Below are positions 1-14,207 of a stretch of 64,000 nucleotides of DNA, piece by piece (positions within the stretch are counted from its first letter, which is position 1; each line of letters starts with the position of its first letter). A program made the translations under genes and the position numbers. A model generated the notes under the pieces. It ran no database searches, was not told the DNA's origin, and was given only the letters and a program-made list of their open reading frames with translations. Where the stretch lies: assembly GCA_963744145.1 (NCBI GenBank), contig CAVUSO010000001.1, positions 3,136,001 to 3,200,000 of the forward strand, in the 5' to 3' direction. Source of the DNA: an uncultured cyanobacterium (lineage in GTDB: Bacteria; Cyanobacteriota; Cyanobacteriia; Cyanobacteriales; CAWUOF01).

Positions 1-96
1 CAAAGTTGTAGTATGTGTGTAATATATTAGTTATGGAAAGGACACCTAGACCTGGACAACTTAATCAGCAACTAGAAATATAAAATAATAAGTTAA

Positions 97-315
<219 letters not shown>

Positions 316-368
316 TATAATTATCCTCTATACCCAGAGATAAAGCTTACAGATATTGACCAGATTTT

Positions 369-499
369 TCACTTCGCGCCCTGACAAAAAAAGCTTACAT
401 ACTAGCCGAATTGGTACAGGCACTTGAATTCTAAATCAAGCGATTGCAGGTTCAAATCCTGCGTATAAGCAAACAGCTTTTTTAACTTGCGTGAAGTGA
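369..499 (+). ncRNA. tRNA-like structured RNA enclosed in a long closing stem (Y RNA-like candidate)
   Basis: D arm GCC405-407/GGC419-421 with GG loop. Stem CTTGA/TCAAG 423-440 with 8-nt loop. T arm GCAGG-TTCAAAT-CCTGC 446-462. Bulged acceptor GCTTA(CA)TAC/GTATAAGC. Outer stem TCACTTCGCGC 369-379 / GCGTGAAGTGA 489-499, followed by a T-run. Directly upstream of a Ro60-like gene. Confidence 0.7.
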
Positions 500-526
500 T
501 TTTTTTTGGGGTAAAGTGTCAATAAT

Positions 527-615
527 GGCAGTTAAGTCGCACCCTCATCGGTAAAGCTAATCTAGCTTGATCACCAACTTGTGCGGAGATCTATCATTTG
601 TGTGCGAAAACTGCC
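527..615 (+). ncRNA. Second structured RNA candidate (Y RNA-like, or 5' leader of the vWA gene)
   Basis: GGCAGTT 527-533 pairs with AACTGCC 609-615. TCGCAC 537-542 pairs with GTGCGA 602-607. Inner hairpin AAGCTA-ATC-TAGCTT. Confidence 0.45.
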
Positions 616-646
616 TCCTGAAAACTCCACAATCAAGGGGAGGTAG

Positions 647-2086
<1,440 letters not shown>

Positions 2087-2090
2087 ATGT

Positions 2091-2114
2091 TTGGGTGAAA
2101 TTAATTTCACCCAA
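2091..2114. terminator. 24-bp perfect palindrome (hairpin, possible terminator or processing signal)
   Basis: TTGGGTGAAATTAATTTCACCCAA immediately after the vWA stop codon. Confidence 0.45.
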
Positions 2115-2169
2115 CATTATTTTATGATTAGTGCTAGTTATCTCCCTTGGGGGTGCTATAATCATAATT

Positions 2170-2724
2170 ATGGACAATCCTCGGTTAGTAAAAATTAGCA
2201 AATATCTGAGCAAACATCTCCGACATCAACCTGAGCAAATTGGACTGGTCCTAGGAGTAGGTGGTTGGGTTTCTGTCGAAGAACTTCTGAGTGCTTGTGA
2301 AAAACACTCCTTTCCTATTACCCGTTTAGAATTAGATGAAGTAGTTGTAAATAATGATAAAAAACGGTTTTCTTTTGATGCTACTAACACTCAGATTCGC
2401 GCTAACCAAGGTCATAGTATCGAAATTGATTTACAATTAGAGCCAGCTATACCTCCAGCTATATTGTATCATGGTACAAGTGATCAGGTCGTACCATCAA
2501 TTTTAGACCAAGGTATTGGCAAAATGTCGCGCCATCATGTACATTTATCTACAGAAATTTCGATCGCACGAAATGTAGGTGCAAGACACGGTCGTCCGGT
2601 TGTTTTCGCGGTAGATACAGCCAAAATGCACCAAGATGGTTATATATTTTATTGTTCTGACAATGGAGTTTGGTTAGTTGATCACGTACCTGCTGAATAT
2701 TTACAAAAGATTGATCTAATTTAG
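2170..2724 (+). CDS. kptA: RNA 2'-phosphotransferase (Tpt1/KptA)
   Basis: SKYLSKHLRH, DKKRF, IRANQGHS, LYHGT, RHHVHLS, NGVWL motifs. Confidence 0.95.
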   Translation: MDNPRLVKISKYLSKHLRHQPEQIGLVLGVGGWVSVEELLSACEKHSFPITRLELDEVVVNNDKKRFSFDATNTQIRANQGHSIEIDLQLEPAIPPAILYHGTSDQVVPSILDQGIGKMSRHHVHLSTEISIARNVGARHGRPVVFAVDTAKMHQDGYIFYCSDNGVWLVDHVPAEYLQKIDLI

Positions 2725-2767
2725 CAATAAATTTTAAAACTTTTTTCGCAACAAAAAGGATATAATT

Positions 2768-3974
2768 ATGGGTTCAGGATCTTTTTGGAACGATGATTCT
2801 ACCGGACAAAATAATGTCCAAAGTCGAGGTTTACTCGCATCAGGTTGGAGACCATTATCACGACAGATTGATTTATCATTCCTGTTGCATTTAGCTACTA
2901 ACGATACCTGGGAATTAACACAAAAAACTCTAGATTTAGCGAGTGATATTGCAGATGCGATCGGACGTTCGAGATTATACTTGGTGGGCTAACATTTTAA
3001 ATATATTTTCCGAAAATACTCGCTATGAAATAGATGAATTTTGGAATTATATTACTCCCGAACCACCTGCACCTGATGAACAATTTAAAGATGTTTTAAG
3101 TATTGAAACTCCTACTGTGCAAATCGTTAGTCGTGATAGTATTCCGATTGATTATGTTTTGAATCGTCTCCGGGAAATTATTGTCATGAAAGTTCTAGAT
3201 TTATTAGGACGTCCAGAATTAATTACCCAAGACTATCTAGAACGACATTTCTATTATCCCGTCGAACGATTTCTCAATTGGGAAAGAATGGAAGCGATCG
3301 GTACAGTTTACGCTTATTGGTCACAGCATCAAGTTTGGTTGCAAATTAATAGTTCTGGAAGAGGAAGAAGACGTTATACTCTCATCGCTAAGGATATTGC
3401 ACCTTTAGTGAATAAATCAACCTATAATCTAGCAGTCATGTTGAGTGGTTATCAAAGTCGGGTTGGTCAGGTGCAAAGTCAGTTTCCGATTCGGACTTTT
3501 CCTAAAGATATTCAAAATTTTACTGATATTGTTCAACAAGCTATTATTGATCAAAATCAGTTAGCTGTGTTAGTACATGGAGATCCAGGAACAGGAAAAA
3601 CTGCATGGACTCAAGCAGTAGCAAAAGAAATTTTGATGCCCTTAGGATATGTTATTTTTATCTTAGATCATGATGCGGTCGAAAATTTTGTCCCCCAAAA
3701 TTATTTGCAACGGGTTTGTCTGATTATTAATGAAGCAGATAATTTAGCTCAAGATCGATCTACTGAAGTTGCTCAACGTAGTAGTAAAACTGAACATATT
3801 TTGAGTTTGCTAGATGGAACTTTATATCAGAGTGTAGTTGATGAAAATGGGTTACAATCAGAGCAAAGATTAGTAGTATTGATGACTTGTAATACTACAG
3901 AAAGGTTAGATCCAGCAGTTTTACGCAAGGGACGGGTTGATTTGATGTATGAATTTACCGAAAAGTTTATCTAG
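2768..3974 (+). CDS. AAA+ ATPase, split by a 1-nt frameshift near 2968
   Basis: ORFs 2768-2992 and 2943-3974 join (ADAIGR/RDYTWWAN). Walker A GDPGTGKT, Walker B-like IINEAD, SRH TCNTTERLDPAVLRKGRVD. Confidence 0.8.
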
Positions 3975-3995
3975 TTAAGATTGTAGGTAAGCATT

Positions 3996-4832
3996 ATGCT
4001 TAAGATTGAGCAGTTACTTCACCAAATTGCTACCCAAGAAAAAGAATTTTGTGCTACCCAATTTCTAGCTCCATCAGTGGTCGGAGGAAAGGTGCGATCG
4101 CGAGTATCAGGTCTGATCTATACTTTTACAATTAAACCCCAGCAATTTACTGGTTGGGGAATATTTCAACCTCTGAATTCTACCGTAGCTGAGTTGGTTA
4201 CTGAAGCAGATTTACCCCAGATTGCTGAATATATGCAATATATGTCACCCATGCGTTTTTGGTTAGCTTATGCTTTACAAAAAAACACTTGGCTCGCATA
4301 TCCAATTAATGAATCTGATGCTCAACAACGTTTTGGTATTACTAAACCAGTTCCGATCCATTTAGTCAGTAATGGTGCAGTTTTTGAACAAATTATTGCC
4401 CGATGGGATGGAGGTAATTGGTGGTTTGAAGATTATGATCGTCGAGCTGATCCTTTTTTATCAGAAAACCTGACAACCGCTTTAAAAGAAATTACTCTAC
4501 CAGCTAAACTTCGGTTTAAAGGAATGACACCAGAAATGAAAATAGTTTATCAGTTGGTAACCCAGCAACAAGCAGAATTTAAAGCCAAAATGGAGTTACA
4601 AACTGATGCAGAAAAACTTGCTCAAGCATTAAAATTAGGTGGAGGAGAATTACAAAAATTTCGCGATCGCGATGATTACTGGGTCGTAGAGTGGACTACT
4701 GGATATGGAGAACATCATACCAGTGCGATCGCTAAAAGTGACCTAACTGTAATCAGTGCAGGAATTTGTCTAAGTGGACTAGATCGAGATTTTGATTTAT
4801 CATCTTTAGTGGGTGTCGTGGAATCTCGATAG
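3996..4832 (+). CDS. Hypothetical protein with a C-terminal E2/UBC-like GICL cysteine motif
   Basis: 278-aa ORF in the operon. C-terminal SAGICLSGLDRDFDLSSLV. The E2 assignment is an inference. Confidence 0.55.
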   Translation: MLKIEQLLHQIATQEKEFCATQFLAPSVVGGKVRSRVSGLIYTFTIKPQQFTGWGIFQPLNSTVAELVTEADLPQIAEYMQYMSPMRFWLAYALQKNTWLAYPINESDAQQRFGITKPVPIHLVSNGAVFEQIIARWDGGNWWFEDYDRRADPFLSENLTTALKEITLPAKLRFKGMTPEMKIVYQLVTQQQAEFKAKMELQTDAEKLAQALKLGGGELQKFRDRDDYWVVEWTTGYGEHHTSAIAKSDLTVISAGICLSGLDRDFDLSSLVGVVESR

Positions 4833-4844
4833 CTGGTGATCATC

Positions 4845-4978
4845 CAATACGGTTCAGTTAAGGATATTTTGGGAGATCTGGTGAGAAGAAGGGTGAAGCA
4901 TTCGGATATAATATTATTCGTTTAAGTGATAAATTATCGCCCGAATGCTTCACCCCTACAGTTAACTTAACTATATTG
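4845..4978. mobile_element. MITE, 134 bp, with 10-bp target-site duplication
   Basis: TIRs CAATACGGTTCAGTTAA / TTAACTTAACTATATTG. Flanking GGTGATCATC at 4835-4844 and 4979-4988. Internal palindrome GGGTGAAGCATTCGG...CCGAATGCTTCACCC. Confidence 0.85.
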
Positions 4979-5017
4979 GGTGATCATCTGGTTTTGTTCC
5001 CTCAATAATTAAAGTAA

Positions 5018-5653
5018 ATGTCTATATTCTTCCATGAACAACTCTATCGAACTCAACCAGTCATGGTGCAATTAACAAATTTTGCTGTGACTGTTTGTGG
5101 TGCTGGTGCGATCGGAGCTAACCTGACCGAAAGTTTAGCTCGATCGGGTTTAGCAAAATTAAAAGTAATTGATCGCGATCGCATTGAAGAACGTAATTTG
5201 TCAACTCAACCTTATTATCGAGCTGATGTTGGTGCTTGCAAAGCCAAAATATTAGCTCATCATCTTTATCGTGCTTTAGGAGTAAAAATTGAGGGTCAAT
5301 CTCAAGAATTAACTCCTAAAAATGTCAAAGAATTATTAAAAAATAGTGACTTAGTTATTGATTCCTTTGATAATAGTATCGGACGTCAAATAGTTAAAGA
5401 TTATTGTTTAGCAGCAAATCTTCCTTGTTTGCACATCGGATTAGCTAGTGACTATGGGGAAATTATCTGGAACAATTCTTATCGCGTTCCTTCTGGAGCT
5501 AATGATGATATTTGTGATTATCCATTAGCGAGAAATTTAGTCATGCTTACCGTTGCGATCGCAGCTGAAGTAATTATTAAGTTTATTGCTACTGGTAAAC
5601 AAGAGAGTTTTACTATTACCTTAGCAGATTTTGGGATTCAACAGTTTCATTAA
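5018..5653 (+). CDS. ThiF/MoeB/E1-like adenylyltransferase
   Basis: GAGAIG, DRDRIEERNLSTQ, K-A-K, DSFDN motifs. Lacks the CxxC Zn pairs. Single Cys in DDICDY. Confidence 0.9.
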   Translation: MSIFFHEQLYRTQPVMVQLTNFAVTVCGAGAIGANLTESLARSGLAKLKVIDRDRIEERNLSTQPYYRADVGACKAKILAHHLYRALGVKIEGQSQELTPKNVKELLKNSDLVIDSFDNSIGRQIVKDYCLAANLPCLHIGLASDYGEIIWNNSYRVPSGANDDICDYPLARNLVMLTVAIAAEVIIKFIATGKQESFTITLADFGIQQFH

Positions 5654-5916
5654 AAATCCCTAGATAACTTTAGATTAAAATTCAGCCAAATCACGGAAAA
5701 ATTGTAAAATTCTATTGTAGCCGATCGCTCTCCTCTCCTGGTCAAAGATCCCATCAAGTCTCACTGGACTAACTTGCTTTTGACCCTCAGTCCATCTCCA
5801 ACCGATTGGTCTGACCTCAACTAGGATGAATATCCCCAAGAATTACTCTCTCGCGATCGGATCGCGCCTAACAAATGTTATCTTGAGGAAAAGAGAGCTA
5901 TGATGCAGGCAAACTT

Positions 5917-6792
5917 ATGGATGCAGGTAAACAGCAAATTCTAGTTTATTTTATCGAAGAAGCTAAAGAACACCTAGAAACCATTGAACAAGGGTTATTG
6001 AATCTCCAGTCGGTAGTCAGTGATCAAGAGAAGACCAACGAACTATTTAGAGCTGCTCACTCAGTTAAGGGGGGTGCAGCGATGTTGGGATTTGGTAGTA
6101 TTCAAAAAACAGCTCACCAATTGGAAGATTGTTTTAAAATTCTCAAAGAAGAACCAGTAAATGTCGATCAAAAGCTGGAATCCCTATTTTTACAGAGCTT
6201 TGATACACTCCGGGATTTACTCGAACGTCTCCAAGGACCTTTTGGTCTGAGGGATGAAGAAGGTGACCAGATGGTCAAAAAAGCCGAACCAGTGTTTATG
6301 GAACTCCAATCGTACTTGAATAATTTAGCACATCAGGGTGGTGCTACTTCTACCGCAGCTTTTGCTGATCAGGTACTAATAGTTCTCCGCGAAATGTTAC
6401 AATTATTTAAAGAAAAAGAATCTACAAATAATCGTCAACAGCTCCAAGAACTATGTAATCGCTTAGAGCAAATGGATGTTCACACTGACAGTTGGCAACG
6501 TTTAGTTAAAACTGCTAAAGGTGCGATCGCTAACTCAAGTAATTCTTATCTCACCTTAGCTCCATTTGTGATTAAAGAAATCAAACAAGCCAGCGATTTA
6601 ATTACAGCCGGAAAAGCTAGCGAAATAGTTGCGAGTAGAAGTTTACAACTACTCCAATCCAAAGGAACTACTGTGCAAAAATATCTTAGCACCGTAGCGG
6701 AACCAAAAGCAGCAGCAGAAGCATTAATTAAAGCTTTTGATAAAAAACAATTAGCAGAGGTAATTAGTTTATTGCAAAAAGCTAGCAAATAG
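5917..6792 (+). CDS. Hpt (histidine phosphotransfer) domain protein, CheA-P1-like
   Basis: FIEEAKEHL...LFRAAHSVKGGAAMLG...AHQLED. Confidence 0.9.
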   Translation: MDAGKQQILVYFIEEAKEHLETIEQGLLNLQSVVSDQEKTNELFRAAHSVKGGAAMLGFGSIQKTAHQLEDCFKILKEEPVNVDQKLESLFLQSFDTLRDLLERLQGPFGLRDEEGDQMVKKAEPVFMELQSYLNNLAHQGGATSTAAFADQVLIVLREMLQLFKEKESTNNRQQLQELCNRLEQMDVHTDSWQRLVKTAKGAIANSSNSYLTLAPFVIKEIKQASDLITAGKASEIVASRSLQLLQSKGTTVQKYLSTVAEPKAAAEALIKAFDKKQLAEVISLLQKASK

Positions 6793-10189: not shown

Positions 10190-10723
10190 ATGAGTACAGC
10201 AATTGATAACTTTAACAAACAACTTCTTGACAATGTAAAAGCAGTTGAAGATCGGGCAATATCGCTGAAGGAAAGCCTTCACTGTGCGACGAAAAAAACT
10301 CAAGATGAAGTTCAATCAAAACTAAACGAAGTGAAAAACAAACTAACCACAAATAAACAAGAATTTGAGCATTATTTGGTAAGTATAAAAACTCAATTCG
10401 AGGAAAAAGAAGCTGAGTTGAAGTCAAATGTCGAAGAATGGAAAGCGAGTCGTGAAGTCAAGAAACTTGAACATCGGGCTGATAAAGCTGAAAACTATGC
10501 AGCGACAGCGATCTTATTCGCAATAGCAGTTCTAGAAGAAGCTGAAAAAGCAACTTTAGAAGCAATTTCTACCAGATTCGATGCAGAAGCAGCAGCGGGA
10601 ACTACTCAGAAGGAAGAGGCAGAATTGGCGGTAGGAACTACTCAGAAGGAAGAGGCAGAATTAGCGGTAGGAACTACTCAGAAGGAAGAGGCAGAATTGG
10701 TGGCAGGAACTACTCAGAAGTAA
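10190..10723 (+). CDS. Hypothetical coiled-coil protein with C-terminal 12-aa repeats
   Basis: RBS GAGG. Heptad-rich. GTTQKEEAELAV repeats. Confidence 0.75.
   Translation: MSTAIDNFNKQLLDNVKAVEDRAISLKESLHCATKKTQDEVQSKLNEVKNKLTTNKQEFEHYLVSIKTQFEEKEAELKSNVEEWKASREVKKLEHRADKAENYAATAILFAIAVLEEAEKATLEAISTRFDAEAAAGTTQKEEAELAVGTTQKEEAELAVGTTQKEEAELVAGTTQK
10598..10720 (+). repeat. 36-bp tandem repeat, about 3.4 copies
   Basis: GGAACTACTCAGAAGGAAGAGGCAGAATT(G/A)G(C/T)GG(T/C)A units starting at 10598, 10634, 10670 and 10706 (partial). Confidence 0.95.
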
Positions 10724-11793: not shown

Positions 11794-14207
11794 ATGAAGA
11801 AAAATACACTTTCCCCAGAACTGCTCCACAAAATAGACGCATACTGGCGTGCTGCTAACTATCTGTCGGTTGGGCAAATTTATCTCTACGACAATCCGTT
11901 GCTGAAGGAGCCGCTAAAACTCTCCCATGTCAAACCTTTAGTGGTCGGACATTGGGGCACAACGCCGGGTCAGAACTTCATCTATGTCCACTTGAATCGG
12001 GTGATCAGAAAGTATGACCTGGATATGTTCTATATCTCTGGTCCTGGTCATGGTGGTCCGGCGCTGGTAGGTAATACTTACCTCGAAGGTTCCTACAGTG
12101 AGATTTATCCAAACATCAGCCAAGACGAAGCCGGACTGAAAAAGCTGTTCAAGCAATTCTCATTTCCCGGCGGAATTTCCAGTCATGTTGCGCCAACAAC
12201 ACCAGGGTCAATTCACGAAGGAGGCGAGTTGGGATACTCCCTCAGCCATGCTTTCGGAGCTGCATTTGACAATCCCGATCTGATCGTTAGCTGCATCATT
12301 GGTGATGGTGAAGCGGAGACGGGTCCATTGGCGACCGCATGGCAGTCCAACAAGCTGCTCAACCCGATTACCGACGGTGCCGTTCTACCCATCCTACATC
12401 TGAATGGCTACAAAATCAACAATCCGACGATCCTGGCTCGCATTGAGCATGAGGAGTTAGAGCAATTTCTCCGAGGCTGCGGCTGGACACCTTACTTTGT
12501 AGCAGGCGATGAGCCAGAAAAGATGCACGAACTCATGGCTAGCACTCTAGACCAGGCGATCGAGGACATTCAGCAAATCCGCAGCAATGCCAGGAACAAC
12601 CATAACACCATGCGACCGCGTTGGCCGATGATCGTTCTTAAGTCGCCCAAGGGCTGGACAGGACCGAAATTTGTCGATGGTCTGCCCAACGAAGGTACAT
12701 CGCGATCGCACCAGGTGCCGCTGATTGTGGATGCCCAACATCCAGATCATGTCCAACAGTTAGAAAGCTGGATGAAGAGCTACAAAGCAGAAGAACTATT
12801 CGATCAGGATGGACGGTTGTTGCCGGAATTGGCAGAGTTAGCACCCCAGGGCGATCGACGGATGGGCGCGAACCCCCACACCAATGGCGGTCTGTTGCTG
12901 CGTGATCTGTGTCTGCCAAACTTCTATGACTATGCGGTGTCTGTACCTTCTCCCGGTGCTGTTGATGGTCAGGACACAATGATCCTAGGCAAATTCCTGC
13001 GTGATGTGATCAAGCTGAATCAACAGCAGAGGAATTTCCGCATCTTCGGCCCGATGAAACACTCTCGAATCTTTTGGGCGCGGTGTTTGAAGTCACGAAT
13101 CGTCAGTGGGAAGGACGGGAGGAAAAGAACGATGAGTTTCTCGCGCCTGCCGGACGGGTGGTGGATTCAATGCTCAGTGAACACCAGTGTGAGGGTTGGT
13201 TGGAAGGCTATTTGCTAACTGGGCGACACGGACTATTCAACAGCTATGAAGCCTTTATTCGGATCGTTGATTCGATGTTCAGTCAACATGCCAAATGGCT
13301 GAAAGTCACATCAGAACTACCTTGGCGACAGCCGATCGCCTCGCTGAACTATCTGCTGGCTTCCCACGTCTGGCAACAGGATCACAACGGCTTTACCCAC
13401 CAAGACCCGGGCTTCCTTGATCACGTTATCAATAAAAAAGCCGATATCGTGCGTGTATATCTACCACCTGATGCGAACTGTCTGCTGTCGGTCTTTGATC
13501 ACTGCTTGCGGAGCCGACACTACGTGAATGTAGTCGTGGCTGGTAAACACGCGCTCCCGCAATGGCTAACTATGGATGCAGCGATTACACATTGCACAGA
13601 AGGAATCGGGATCTGGCAATGGGCTAGTAATGATCAGGACGCTGAACCAGACGTAGTGATGGCTTGCTGTGGTGATACACCGACCCTTGAGATTTTGGCT
13701 GCTGTTTCTATCCTGCGTCTGCATCTGCCCGATCTGAAAATTCGGGTGATCAATGTCGTCGATCTGATGAAGTTACAGTCCGCTAGTGAACACCCGCATG
13801 GTCTGAGTGAAAAGGACTACGACTCACTGTTTACAACAGACAAACCCATTATCTTTGGCTTTCATGGCTATCCCTGGCTGGTACACCGACTGACCTATCG
13901 CCGACTCAACAACAACCTTCATGTTCGGGGCTACAAGGAAGAAGGCACGATCACAACAGCCTTTGATATCAGGGTGCAAAATGACCTGGATCGCTTTCAT
14001 CTGGTCCAAGATGTGGTCGATCGTCTGCCCAATTTGGGTACTAAGGGGGCTTATCTCAAGCAAATGATGCAGGACAAGCTGATTGAACACAAACAATACA
14101 TTAACCAGCACGGCGAAGACTTACCAGAAATCCGCAACTGGAAGTGGAGTTCGGAAGCAATGCAGAAAGGAAAACCGTTGGTGGAAAAAATGCCTGTACT
14201 GAACTGA
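11794..14207 (+). CDS. xfp: Phosphoketolase copy 1, 1-nt frameshift at ~13050
   Basis: [24 protein letters not shown]. Near-identical to 23118-25532. GGCCCGAT lacks one C relative to G-P-D-E in copy 2. Confidence 0.9.

Follow-up and report, generated by a model that had tools for sequence, protein, structure and literature searches.

X278, an open reading frame (ORF) of 278 codons in a 64,000-nucleotide stretch of DNA from an uncultured cyanobacterium (GenBank assembly GCA_963744145.1, contig CAVUSO010000001.1, positions 3,136,001 to 3,200,000 of the forward strand; hereafter the window), codes for one of four core components, the one that bears an invariant cysteine, of a gene module found in bacteria and on contigs classed as viral. 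The other core components are a small ubiquitin-like protein (Ubl), a Ro60-like protein accompanied by a tRNA-like RNA, and a minimal ThiF-type activating enzyme (E1); a JAB protein is often present. In a first-pass annotation made from the sequence letters, X278 had been taken tentatively for a minimal or divergent ubiquitin-conjugating enzyme (E2) fused to an N-terminal targeting domain. Our preferred reading, held at slightly less than even confidence, is that X278 serves as an E2-like thiol relay and RNA-binding adaptor of a Ubl module attached to a Ro60/tRNA-like ribonucleoprotein (RNP).

The X278 family, its invariant cysteine and its predicted fold

The X278 family is large and has no name, comprising more than 700 sequence clusters. 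At E ≤ 1e-3, 1,020 proteins (90% clusters) were collected, and wherever a source supplied a name, this was 'hypothetical protein'. Clustering at 50% identity gave 733 representative clusters, 166 of which were retrieved at E ≤ 1e-30. X278 had no match in Pfam, NCBIfam, PADLOC or PHROGs. Searches of PDB sequences with the single sequence and with a profile returned nothing below E ~1, and the ESM Atlas held no usable match. On the opposite strand of the X278 ORF there was no overlapping ORF of 60 aa or more.

Conservation was assessed by aligning 91 diverse homologues of full length, 28 to 67% identical to the query. Cys258, in the motif GICLSG, had been expected by the first-pass annotation to be conserved if its E2 proposal held, and it is invariant in 91/91. 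The same column was then read across 270 fetched homologues, where Cys was present in 257 of the 258 segments covering it; the exception was a fragment with Phe. Only P26, G53 and C258 are invariant among the 91 homologues, while G256, L259, D263, F266 and D267 are conserved in 87 to 90 of them. The nearest His to Cys258 is H241, 17 residues before it, which is kept in 58/91. The alignment contains no invariant His, and no second invariant Cys with which a protease dyad, disulfide or metal site could be formed. X278 as a papain-like or other thiol protease was rejected, as no His is conserved.

An AlphaFold2 model of X278 was built with the 91 homologues (mean predicted local distance difference test score (pLDDT) 95.9; predicted template modelling score 0.82). 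Its segments are listed in Table 1. The N-terminal domain of the first-pass annotation is real, and is predicted to consist of a pair of barrels resembling the oligonucleotide/oligosaccharide-binding (OB) fold. All of the C-terminal elements that had been listed from the letters, namely the strands, GICLSG and the final helix, recur in the model together with one further strand. The loop bearing Cys258 sits between strand 251-254 and helix 268-277, with three residues from the fourth strand to the Cys. Residues 190-278 modelled alone gave a pLDDT of 94.0. In the predicted models the order of elements in this domain (helix, four-strand meander, Cys loop, helix) is that of the UBC core, and the predicted topology of the C-terminal domain is UBC-like.

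Structural searches were carried out with Foldseek. The whole X278 model gave no match at E ≤ 1e-3, the top rows being RNase II, exosome cap proteins and S1; against PDB and BFVD, only OB-type matches of low template-modelling score were returned. The model of residues 190-278 likewise gave none at E ≤ 1e-3, and the values were within the noise range of the tool.

Distribution and partners of the module

A profile search of 301 cyanobacterial genomes found X278 in 32, belonging to 17 of 134 genera, so that its distribution is patchy. At 12 cyanobacterial loci, X278 was followed by ThiF in 10, and was accompanied by the Ro60-like gene in 7 and by Ubl in 5. GTDB genomes were scanned with a degenerate DNA pattern for AGICLxxxDxxFDL. 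At least 120 matching stretches were obtained, 80 of which were fetched with their flanks, and 74 of the 80 encode X278. The record titles of these bacterial loci name Cyanobacteria, Obscuribacterales/Melainabacteria, Planctomycetota, Chloroflexota, Acidobacteriota, Rhodothermaceae, Chitinophagales, Desulfobacteraceae, Burkholderiales, Parabeggiatoa, Xenobia and Vulcanimicrobiota; the bacteria named come from at least eight phyla. Within 4 kb and on the same strand, ThiF was found at 59/74 loci, the Ro60-like gene at 49/74 and Ubl at 36/74. Where flanks were complete (46 bacterial loci), the corresponding counts were 41, 35 and 28, and all four genes were present at 25.

The same pattern applied to IMG/VR returned 19 contigs classed there as viral (L147-L165), five of them 340 to 467 kb long. 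X278 was encoded on 19/19, the Ro60-like protein on 19/19, ThiF on 17/19 and Ubl on 15/19. X278 is also encoded in a 595-kb uncultured phage record (LR756511.1, 283932-284729; 33% identity, E 3e-41). The 74 bacterial and 19 viral loci were combined into a set of 93, and their 2,394 unassigned ORFs of at least 90 aa were clustered. Beyond JAB, no cluster occurred in more than six non-Microcoleus loci except for shadow ORFs, the examples in two large clusters being antisense to X278 and to the Ro60-like gene. No canonical E2 (Prok-E2), rhodanese or desulfurase was among the conserved ORF clusters of the 93 loci.

Both of the neighbours invoked by the first-pass annotation, a ThiF protein and a Ubl, are present in the window (Table 1). 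The Ubl-like ORF had no match in Pfam, and in the ESM Atlas only unnamed clusters were matched, one of them commonest in Uroviricota. A beta-grasp fold is predicted for this protein of ~66 aa from its strand-strand-helix-strand-strand pattern. The ending RPEAVYG-stop is found in 6/6 cyanobacterial copies and [YF]G-stop in 29/29 homologues, with H8, R10, G13, S15, R65, P66, A68 and G71 invariant; G71 is kept in 37/37. With this ending, the Ubl would be ready for adenylation without processing. In the E1, Cys27, Cys137 and Cys166 are invariant (57 and 35 sequences), as are GxGxxG, D52, D118 and R123. Cys166 lies in a conserved DxCDYPLARN stretch, and its invariance would allow a two-cysteine relay. 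The E1 profile matches Uba1, TcdA, MoeB, Uba4 and MccB about equally (1e-17 to 1e-14).

A 30-sequence profile of the Ro60-like protein was searched against PDB, and the five best matches were all Ro60/TROVE/Rsr proteins (among them 9nen, E 3.7e-6; 9l5y, 1.2e-4; 1yvp, 2e-3; 2nvo, 0.053). Residues D300, S302 and S304 of its metal ion-dependent adhesion site (MIDAS) are invariant. The hallmarks of a Ro60/TROVE-Y RNA pair, a TROVE plus vWA architecture, a MIDAS and an adjacent tRNA-like non-coding RNA (ncRNA), were thus all found for this neighbour. A second, stand-alone vWA protein (259 aa) adjoins the Ro60-like gene in L035 (10718-11497, minus strand), L067, L095, L159 and L165.

JAB was recovered by clustering the unassigned ORFs of the module. 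These proteins are 116 to 230 aa long, match Prok-JAB (PF14464) at ~1e-8 and retain an intact JAMM motif (E...HxHP...PSxxD); the gene lies between X278 and ThiF. With a hidden Markov model, JAB was detected in 27/93 loci (11/74 bacterial, 16/19 viral), for example at L034 8114-8518 (plus), L035 7479-7913 (minus) and L158 8102-8482 (plus). In loci with JAB, too, the Ubl needs no trimming, so JAB fits a role in deconjugation.

The tRNA-like RNA of the window was called tRNA-??? by ARAGORN. In a further 17 loci, belonging to Cyanobacteria and Pyrinomonadaceae, the Ubl and Ro60-like genes likewise flank such an element (aligned from L013, L016, L020, L023, L024, L031, L039, L041, L071, L072, L074, L082, L085, L097, L099 and L100, among others). 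The 5' end TACATAC is shared by 17/18 elements, the T-arm is conserved, and compensatory changes were seen at 10 of the 14 predicted pairs. The 'anticodons' vary freely, comprising Leu, Asn, Ser, Phe, Lys, Ile, Pro and two stop-reading types, with odd loop sizes. The motif was present in 22/166 fetched loci, one of them viral. Judged by these alignments, the family seems to be a tRNA-like RNA specific to the module, comparable to Y RNA, and not a decoder. Ten loci without ARAGORN matches were searched with Rfam at the gathering threshold and gave no tRNA-like RNA, so the RNA is frequent and not universal, or else has diverged beyond the tRNA model. Its place beside the Ro60-like gene fits a passage of one review (PMC7824862) in which Ro/TROVE with 'a tRNA-like partner' is described as an RNA-repair platform. 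In some Oscillatoriales a conserved 240-aa ORF without a Pfam match lies between the Ubl and Ro60-like genes (L013 14780-15502, L016 13153-13878 and L024 11991-12713, all on the minus strand), with a copy of the tRNA-like RNA on either side.

Co-directional arrays of 20 to 25 tRNA genes were located directly upstream of the Ubl gene in five loci (L035 13182-15998; L036 87-3904; L041 7001-9586; L078 3349-6542; L097 1956-4030), which come from Planctomycetota, Acidobacteriota and one uncultured bacterium. Shorter runs of 4 to 7 occur in L023, L062, L083, L101 and L104. At least one tRNA gene was found in 26/74 bacterial and 15/19 viral loci; in the genome of the window, the 10.4 kb upstream of the window held no tRNA array. 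Long cyanobacterial tRNA arrays, lying among RNA-processing genes and induced by translational stress, are described by Santamaria-Gomez et al. 2021 (PMC8421152). The text of that article does not contain the words ThiF, vWA, TROVE or ubiquitin.

Candidate roles of X278 and related systems

Under the preferred reading, E1 would adenylate the C-terminal Gly of the Ubl, as family knowledge suggests. The activated Ubl, possibly by way of E1 Cys166, would then be passed to Cys258 of X278 to form a thioester. The OB-like barrels would hold an RNA or RNP (the tRNA-like RNA, tRNAs or the Ro60-like particle), and the Ubl would for that reason be delivered to a target in that complex; where JAB is present, it would remove the Ubl again. 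X278 would in this way work like an E2 or an E2/E3 hybrid. Ubl, E1 and JAB together are the hallmark of prokaryotic Ubl systems, and a thioester relay is favoured because X278 fills the place of the E2-like protein in this set and because, of the remaining conserved proteins, X278 alone carries an invariant nucleophile, a Cys placed by the model between a meander sheet and a helix. Iyer et al. 2006 list an E2-like protein as the fourth member of the conjugating operon types.

Several results weigh against this reading. Residues 248-257 of X278 hold no conserved His or Asn and no HPN motif or equivalent, in agreement with the absence of a canonical HPN reported in the first pass. When the 91 family members were compared with Pfam at E ≤ 10, no E2 family appeared among the 25 families listed of 50, and each listed family was matched by just one of the 91. 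Comparison by hhalign with two Cap2-type E2-E1 proteins gave a probability of 0.15%, a test with little power because a broad E2 profile was lacking and the Cap2 profile comprised two sequences only. PF14461 was found in 2/201 cyanobacterial genomes, and a word-based search from one PF14461 protein returned itself as the sole match. No fused forms longer than 488 aa, including X278-E1 fusions, were found in the family, which is weak evidence. JAB was absent from the window, from 12 other cyanobacterial loci (L013-L024) and from the genome of the window. Conjugation of Ubls independently of any E2 is moreover known for archaeal SAMPs and Thermus TtuB.

Both HPN and profile similarity were looked for and neither was found, and the Foldseek values lay within noise, so that X278 is not assignable to the UBC superfamily. 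At best X278 works like an E2, and it may be an independent invention outside that superfamily. The divergent E2 of the first-pass annotation is upheld as regards the Cys, the order of secondary structure and the gene context, but HPN, a profile link and a Foldseek match at E ≤ 1e-3 are all missing. A similar division applies to the E2-type G.ICL motif that had been reported. In the PROSITE E2 signature, G-x-[LIV]-C-[LIV], the Gly stands three residues before the Cys. The I-C-L of X278 agrees with this signature, whereas the Gly of A-G-I-C-L stands two residues before the Cys, a spacing difference of one residue.

If the Ubl were instead a sulfur carrier of the ThiS/MoaD/TtuB type, a persulfide on Cys258 could convert the acyl-adenylate to a thiocarboxylate, the part played for ThiS by ThiI or a rhodanese, and the OB-like barrels would bring this chemistry to a tRNA or the tRNA-like RNA for RNA thiolation. 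The E1 profile is equally near to MoeB, ThiF, Uba4, TcdA and Uba1, the Ubl, a small protein, requires no trimming, and the module is tied to a tRNA-like RNA and to tRNA arrays, all of which would suit such a relay. A single invariant Cys without a His would also serve as well for a persulfide as for a thioester carrier, and JAB is dispensable in cyanobacteria. JAB and E1 occur together in sulfur-carrier operons as well (table rows 4b and 4c of Iyer et al. 2006), a point in favour of sulfur transfer and against thioester conjugation. Against this, Pfam identified no rhodanese, cysteine desulfurase, PP-loop ATPase or sulfur-accepting synthase in ~67 neighbour ORFs, and none of these enzymes was among the conserved ORF clusters of the 93 loci. 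Sulfur-carrier Ubls typically end in GG, whereas the Ubl of the module ends in [YF]G. GICLSG resembles no persulfide-carrier motif known to us, and we know of no link between a Ro60-like partner and sulfur chemistry. A sulfur relay is on this evidence considered unlikely.

Less likely still is a non-catalytic role, with X278 as an RNA- or Ubl-binding scaffold of the Ro60-like RNP, its Cys structural or a redox sensor, and conjugation carried out by E1 without an E2. The OB-like barrels that make up most of X278, the lack of detectable E2 homology, the variable X278-ThiF gap (more than 200 nt in 40/76 loci) and the known examples of E2-free conjugation in prokaryotes are all compatible with this. 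A lone Cys kept in 257/258 across phyla and phages, within a strict G-I-C-L loop, would however be unusual for a purely structural residue of a cytosolic protein, and no partner Cys or His is available for a metal site or disulfide. The least probable of the alternatives is a cysteine hydrolase, in which the C-terminal domain would remove the Ubl, an aminoacyl or a peptidyl group from a protein or tRNA. The invariant Cys and the tRNA context would fit, and cyanobacteria, having no JAB, might need another de-conjugating activity. A dyad or triad lacks an invariant His, Asn or Gln, however; no papain-like, OTU, YbaK or other thiol-hydrolase fold was among the listed matches, and X278 co-occurs with JAB instead of replacing it.

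A variant of the preferred thioester relay, for which we see only a slim chance, is that X278 may move the C-terminal Gly of the Ubl from the Cys258 thioester onto RNA, or onto protein on condition that a particular RNA is bound. In this variant the barrels would dock the tRNA-like RNA or a damaged or array-encoded tRNA, and the product would be an ester at the RNA 3' end, in a reaction resembling aminoacylation, or an amide on a modified base. The resulting protein-RNA conjugate would be read by the Ro60-like protein and erased by JAB, and X278 would represent an independently evolved, non-UBC class of E2 carried on huge phages and on bacterial tRNA-array islands.

Several known systems resemble parts of the module. 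UBC-fold E2s (UQ_con, Prok-E2 and the E2 domain of CBASS Cap2) have a small alpha/beta domain with the same order of helix, four-strand meander, Cys loop and helix as that predicted for X278, and the same I-C-L; the X278 gene, too, has an E1 and a Gly-terminated Ubl, and often a JAB, as neighbours. The same parts logic is found in the prokaryotic Ubl-E1-E2-JAB operons (types 6a-e of Iyer, Burroughs and Aravind 2006), Bil, type II CBASS and Bub, which are also patchy, mobile and present in phage genomes. Unlike the 2006 operons, the X278 module includes a Ro60-like protein and its own tRNA-like RNA and is linked to tRNA arrays; the words TROVE and vWA occur 0 times in the text of Iyer et al. 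2006. The module also differs in that its E1 is a bare adenylation domain of 211 aa and its JAB is optional. Bub uses oxyester intermediates, a difference from the thioester proposed for the X278 module.

The ThiS-ThiF-ThiI and TtuB-TtuC systems resemble the X278 module in having an E1 of the minimal ThiF type, a Ubl that is small and not processed, an RNA-binding module on the Cys protein (ThiI) and a link to tRNA. The X278 module differs from them in lacking a rhodanese, PP-loop protein or desulfurase, in the [YF]G ending of its Ubl and in its Ro60-like partner. In bacterial Ro60 (Rsr)-Y RNA (YrlA) RNPs, a TROVE plus vWA gene is likewise found beside an ncRNA with a tRNA-like domain. The likeness extends to RNA-repair genes among the neighbours of the X278 module (KptA, an RNase T-like exonuclease, NADAR and EndoV), whereas known rsr operons are paired with RtcB/RtcA. 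In the literature searched, none of Ubl, E1, JAB and X278 was described as a partner of bacterial Ro60. The N-domains of proteasomal AAA ATPases (PAN, and Mpa with its double OB) are also among the closest known systems. In full-text literature searches, neither TROVE/Ro60 nor tRNA arrays turned up in connection with ThiF/E1, Ubl or JAB, although an earlier mention is possible.

If X278 is a thiol carrier, its module would be a further ubiquitin-like pathway of bacteria and phages, in addition to type II CBASS, Bil and Bub, and an unusual one, as the carrier would have no detectable UBC homology and would be fused to barrels of an RNA-binding type. The ties to a Ro60-like RNP, a tRNA-like RNA and tRNA arrays point to tRNA or RNA quality control and away from a phage structural protein. 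The presence of the module on viral contigs of up to 467 kb, together with the 595-kb phage record, suggests a role in a contest over the tRNA pool during infection. A testable function would thereby be given to a family that is annotated everywhere as hypothetical.

Features of the window and accessory inserts

The genes of the window are arranged in the order Ubl-like ORF, tRNA-like RNA, Ro60-like gene, KptA, AAA+ ATPase, X278, palindrome and ThiF. Coordinates are given in Table 1. A listing for window positions 1-6000 showed no RNA holder.

Table 1. Features of the module in the window and segments of X278 (nt, positions in the window; residues, positions in X278).
Feature	Position	Strand	Evidence or remark
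Small Ubl-like protein	nt 100-315	+	Listed from TTG 100; likely start ATG 115 (MVHIRFEG...); ends RPEAVYG-stop
tRNA-like RNA, degenerate acceptor stem, 4-base 'anticodon'	nt 396-470	+	Rfam tRNA 38.9 bits, E 1.2e-5
Ro60-like protein, TROVE-type helical repeats + vWA	nt 653-2086	+	Weak VWA_2 match; MIDAS DxSxS
KptA/Tpt1 RNA 2'-phosphotransferase	nt 2131-2724	+	Pfam PTS_2-RNA 2.6e-52; NCBIfam NF002014 271 bits, above cut-off
AAA+ ATPase, ~200-aa N-terminal region of unknown kind	nt 2943-3974	+	Pfam AAA 2.5e-13
X278	nt 3996-4832	+	ATG start, 278 aa; Cys258 codon 4767-4769
X278 helix	residues 2-19		AlphaFold2 model
X278 OB-like barrel 1, five strands	~residues 23-70 (nt 4062-4205)		AlphaFold2 model
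X278 OB-like barrel 2	~residues 82-150 (nt 4239-4445; modelled elements at residues 84-147)		AlphaFold2 model
X278 helices	residues 153-214		AlphaFold2 model; long helix 193-214 precedes the sheet
X278 Cys domain, ~85 aa	residues 193-278 (nt 4572-4829)		AlphaFold2 model
X278 Cys-domain strands	residues 218-225, 228-234 (YWVVEWT), 240-246 (HHTSAIA), 251-254 (TVIS)		
X278 GICLSG loop, then helix	Cys258; helix residues 268-277 (LSSLVGVVES)		AlphaFold2 model
Nested inverted repeat, ~155 nt	nt 4835-4988	.	Fills the X278-ThiF gap
Minimal ThiF/MoeB-type E1, 211 aa, adenylation domain only	nt 5018-5653	+	Pfam ThiF 5e-27

KptA and the AAA+ ATPase are accessory inserts and not part of the module core. 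KptA lies close to X278 in few loci (L017, L019, L047, L069 and L073), and only in the window, L047 and L069 do both genes separate the Ro60-like gene from X278. In L023 the four core genes are directly adjacent, without KptA or an AAA protein. The DNA between core genes of cyanobacterial loci holds variable inserts, including toxin-antitoxin pairs, DUF433, Uma2 and a transposase. The inserts in L017 and L019 are RNA enzymes, with KptA, GNAT and an RNase T-like exonuclease in both, plus EndoV in L017 and NADAR in L019.

The inverted repeat downstream of X278 was folded at -60.2 kcal/mol (z -5.3), and none of 200 shuffled sequences was equally stable. It matches a hairpin model on both strands. 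The X278-ThiF gap is 30 nt or less in 19 of the 76 other loci. The repeat is probably a palindromic element whose insertion parted X278 and ThiF, two genes that otherwise lie close together.

Further along the window, in an ORF at 10190-10723 (plus strand), a 13-aa unit (AGTTQKEEAELAV-like) occurs three times in tandem at the C-terminus. The GC content is 0.50 to 0.52 from position 11794 onward, against 0.35 to 0.40 in the module. The ORF at 11794-13218 (plus strand), the start of which we take to be phosphoketolase-like, stops after 474 aa, its odd tail being suggestive of a frameshift.

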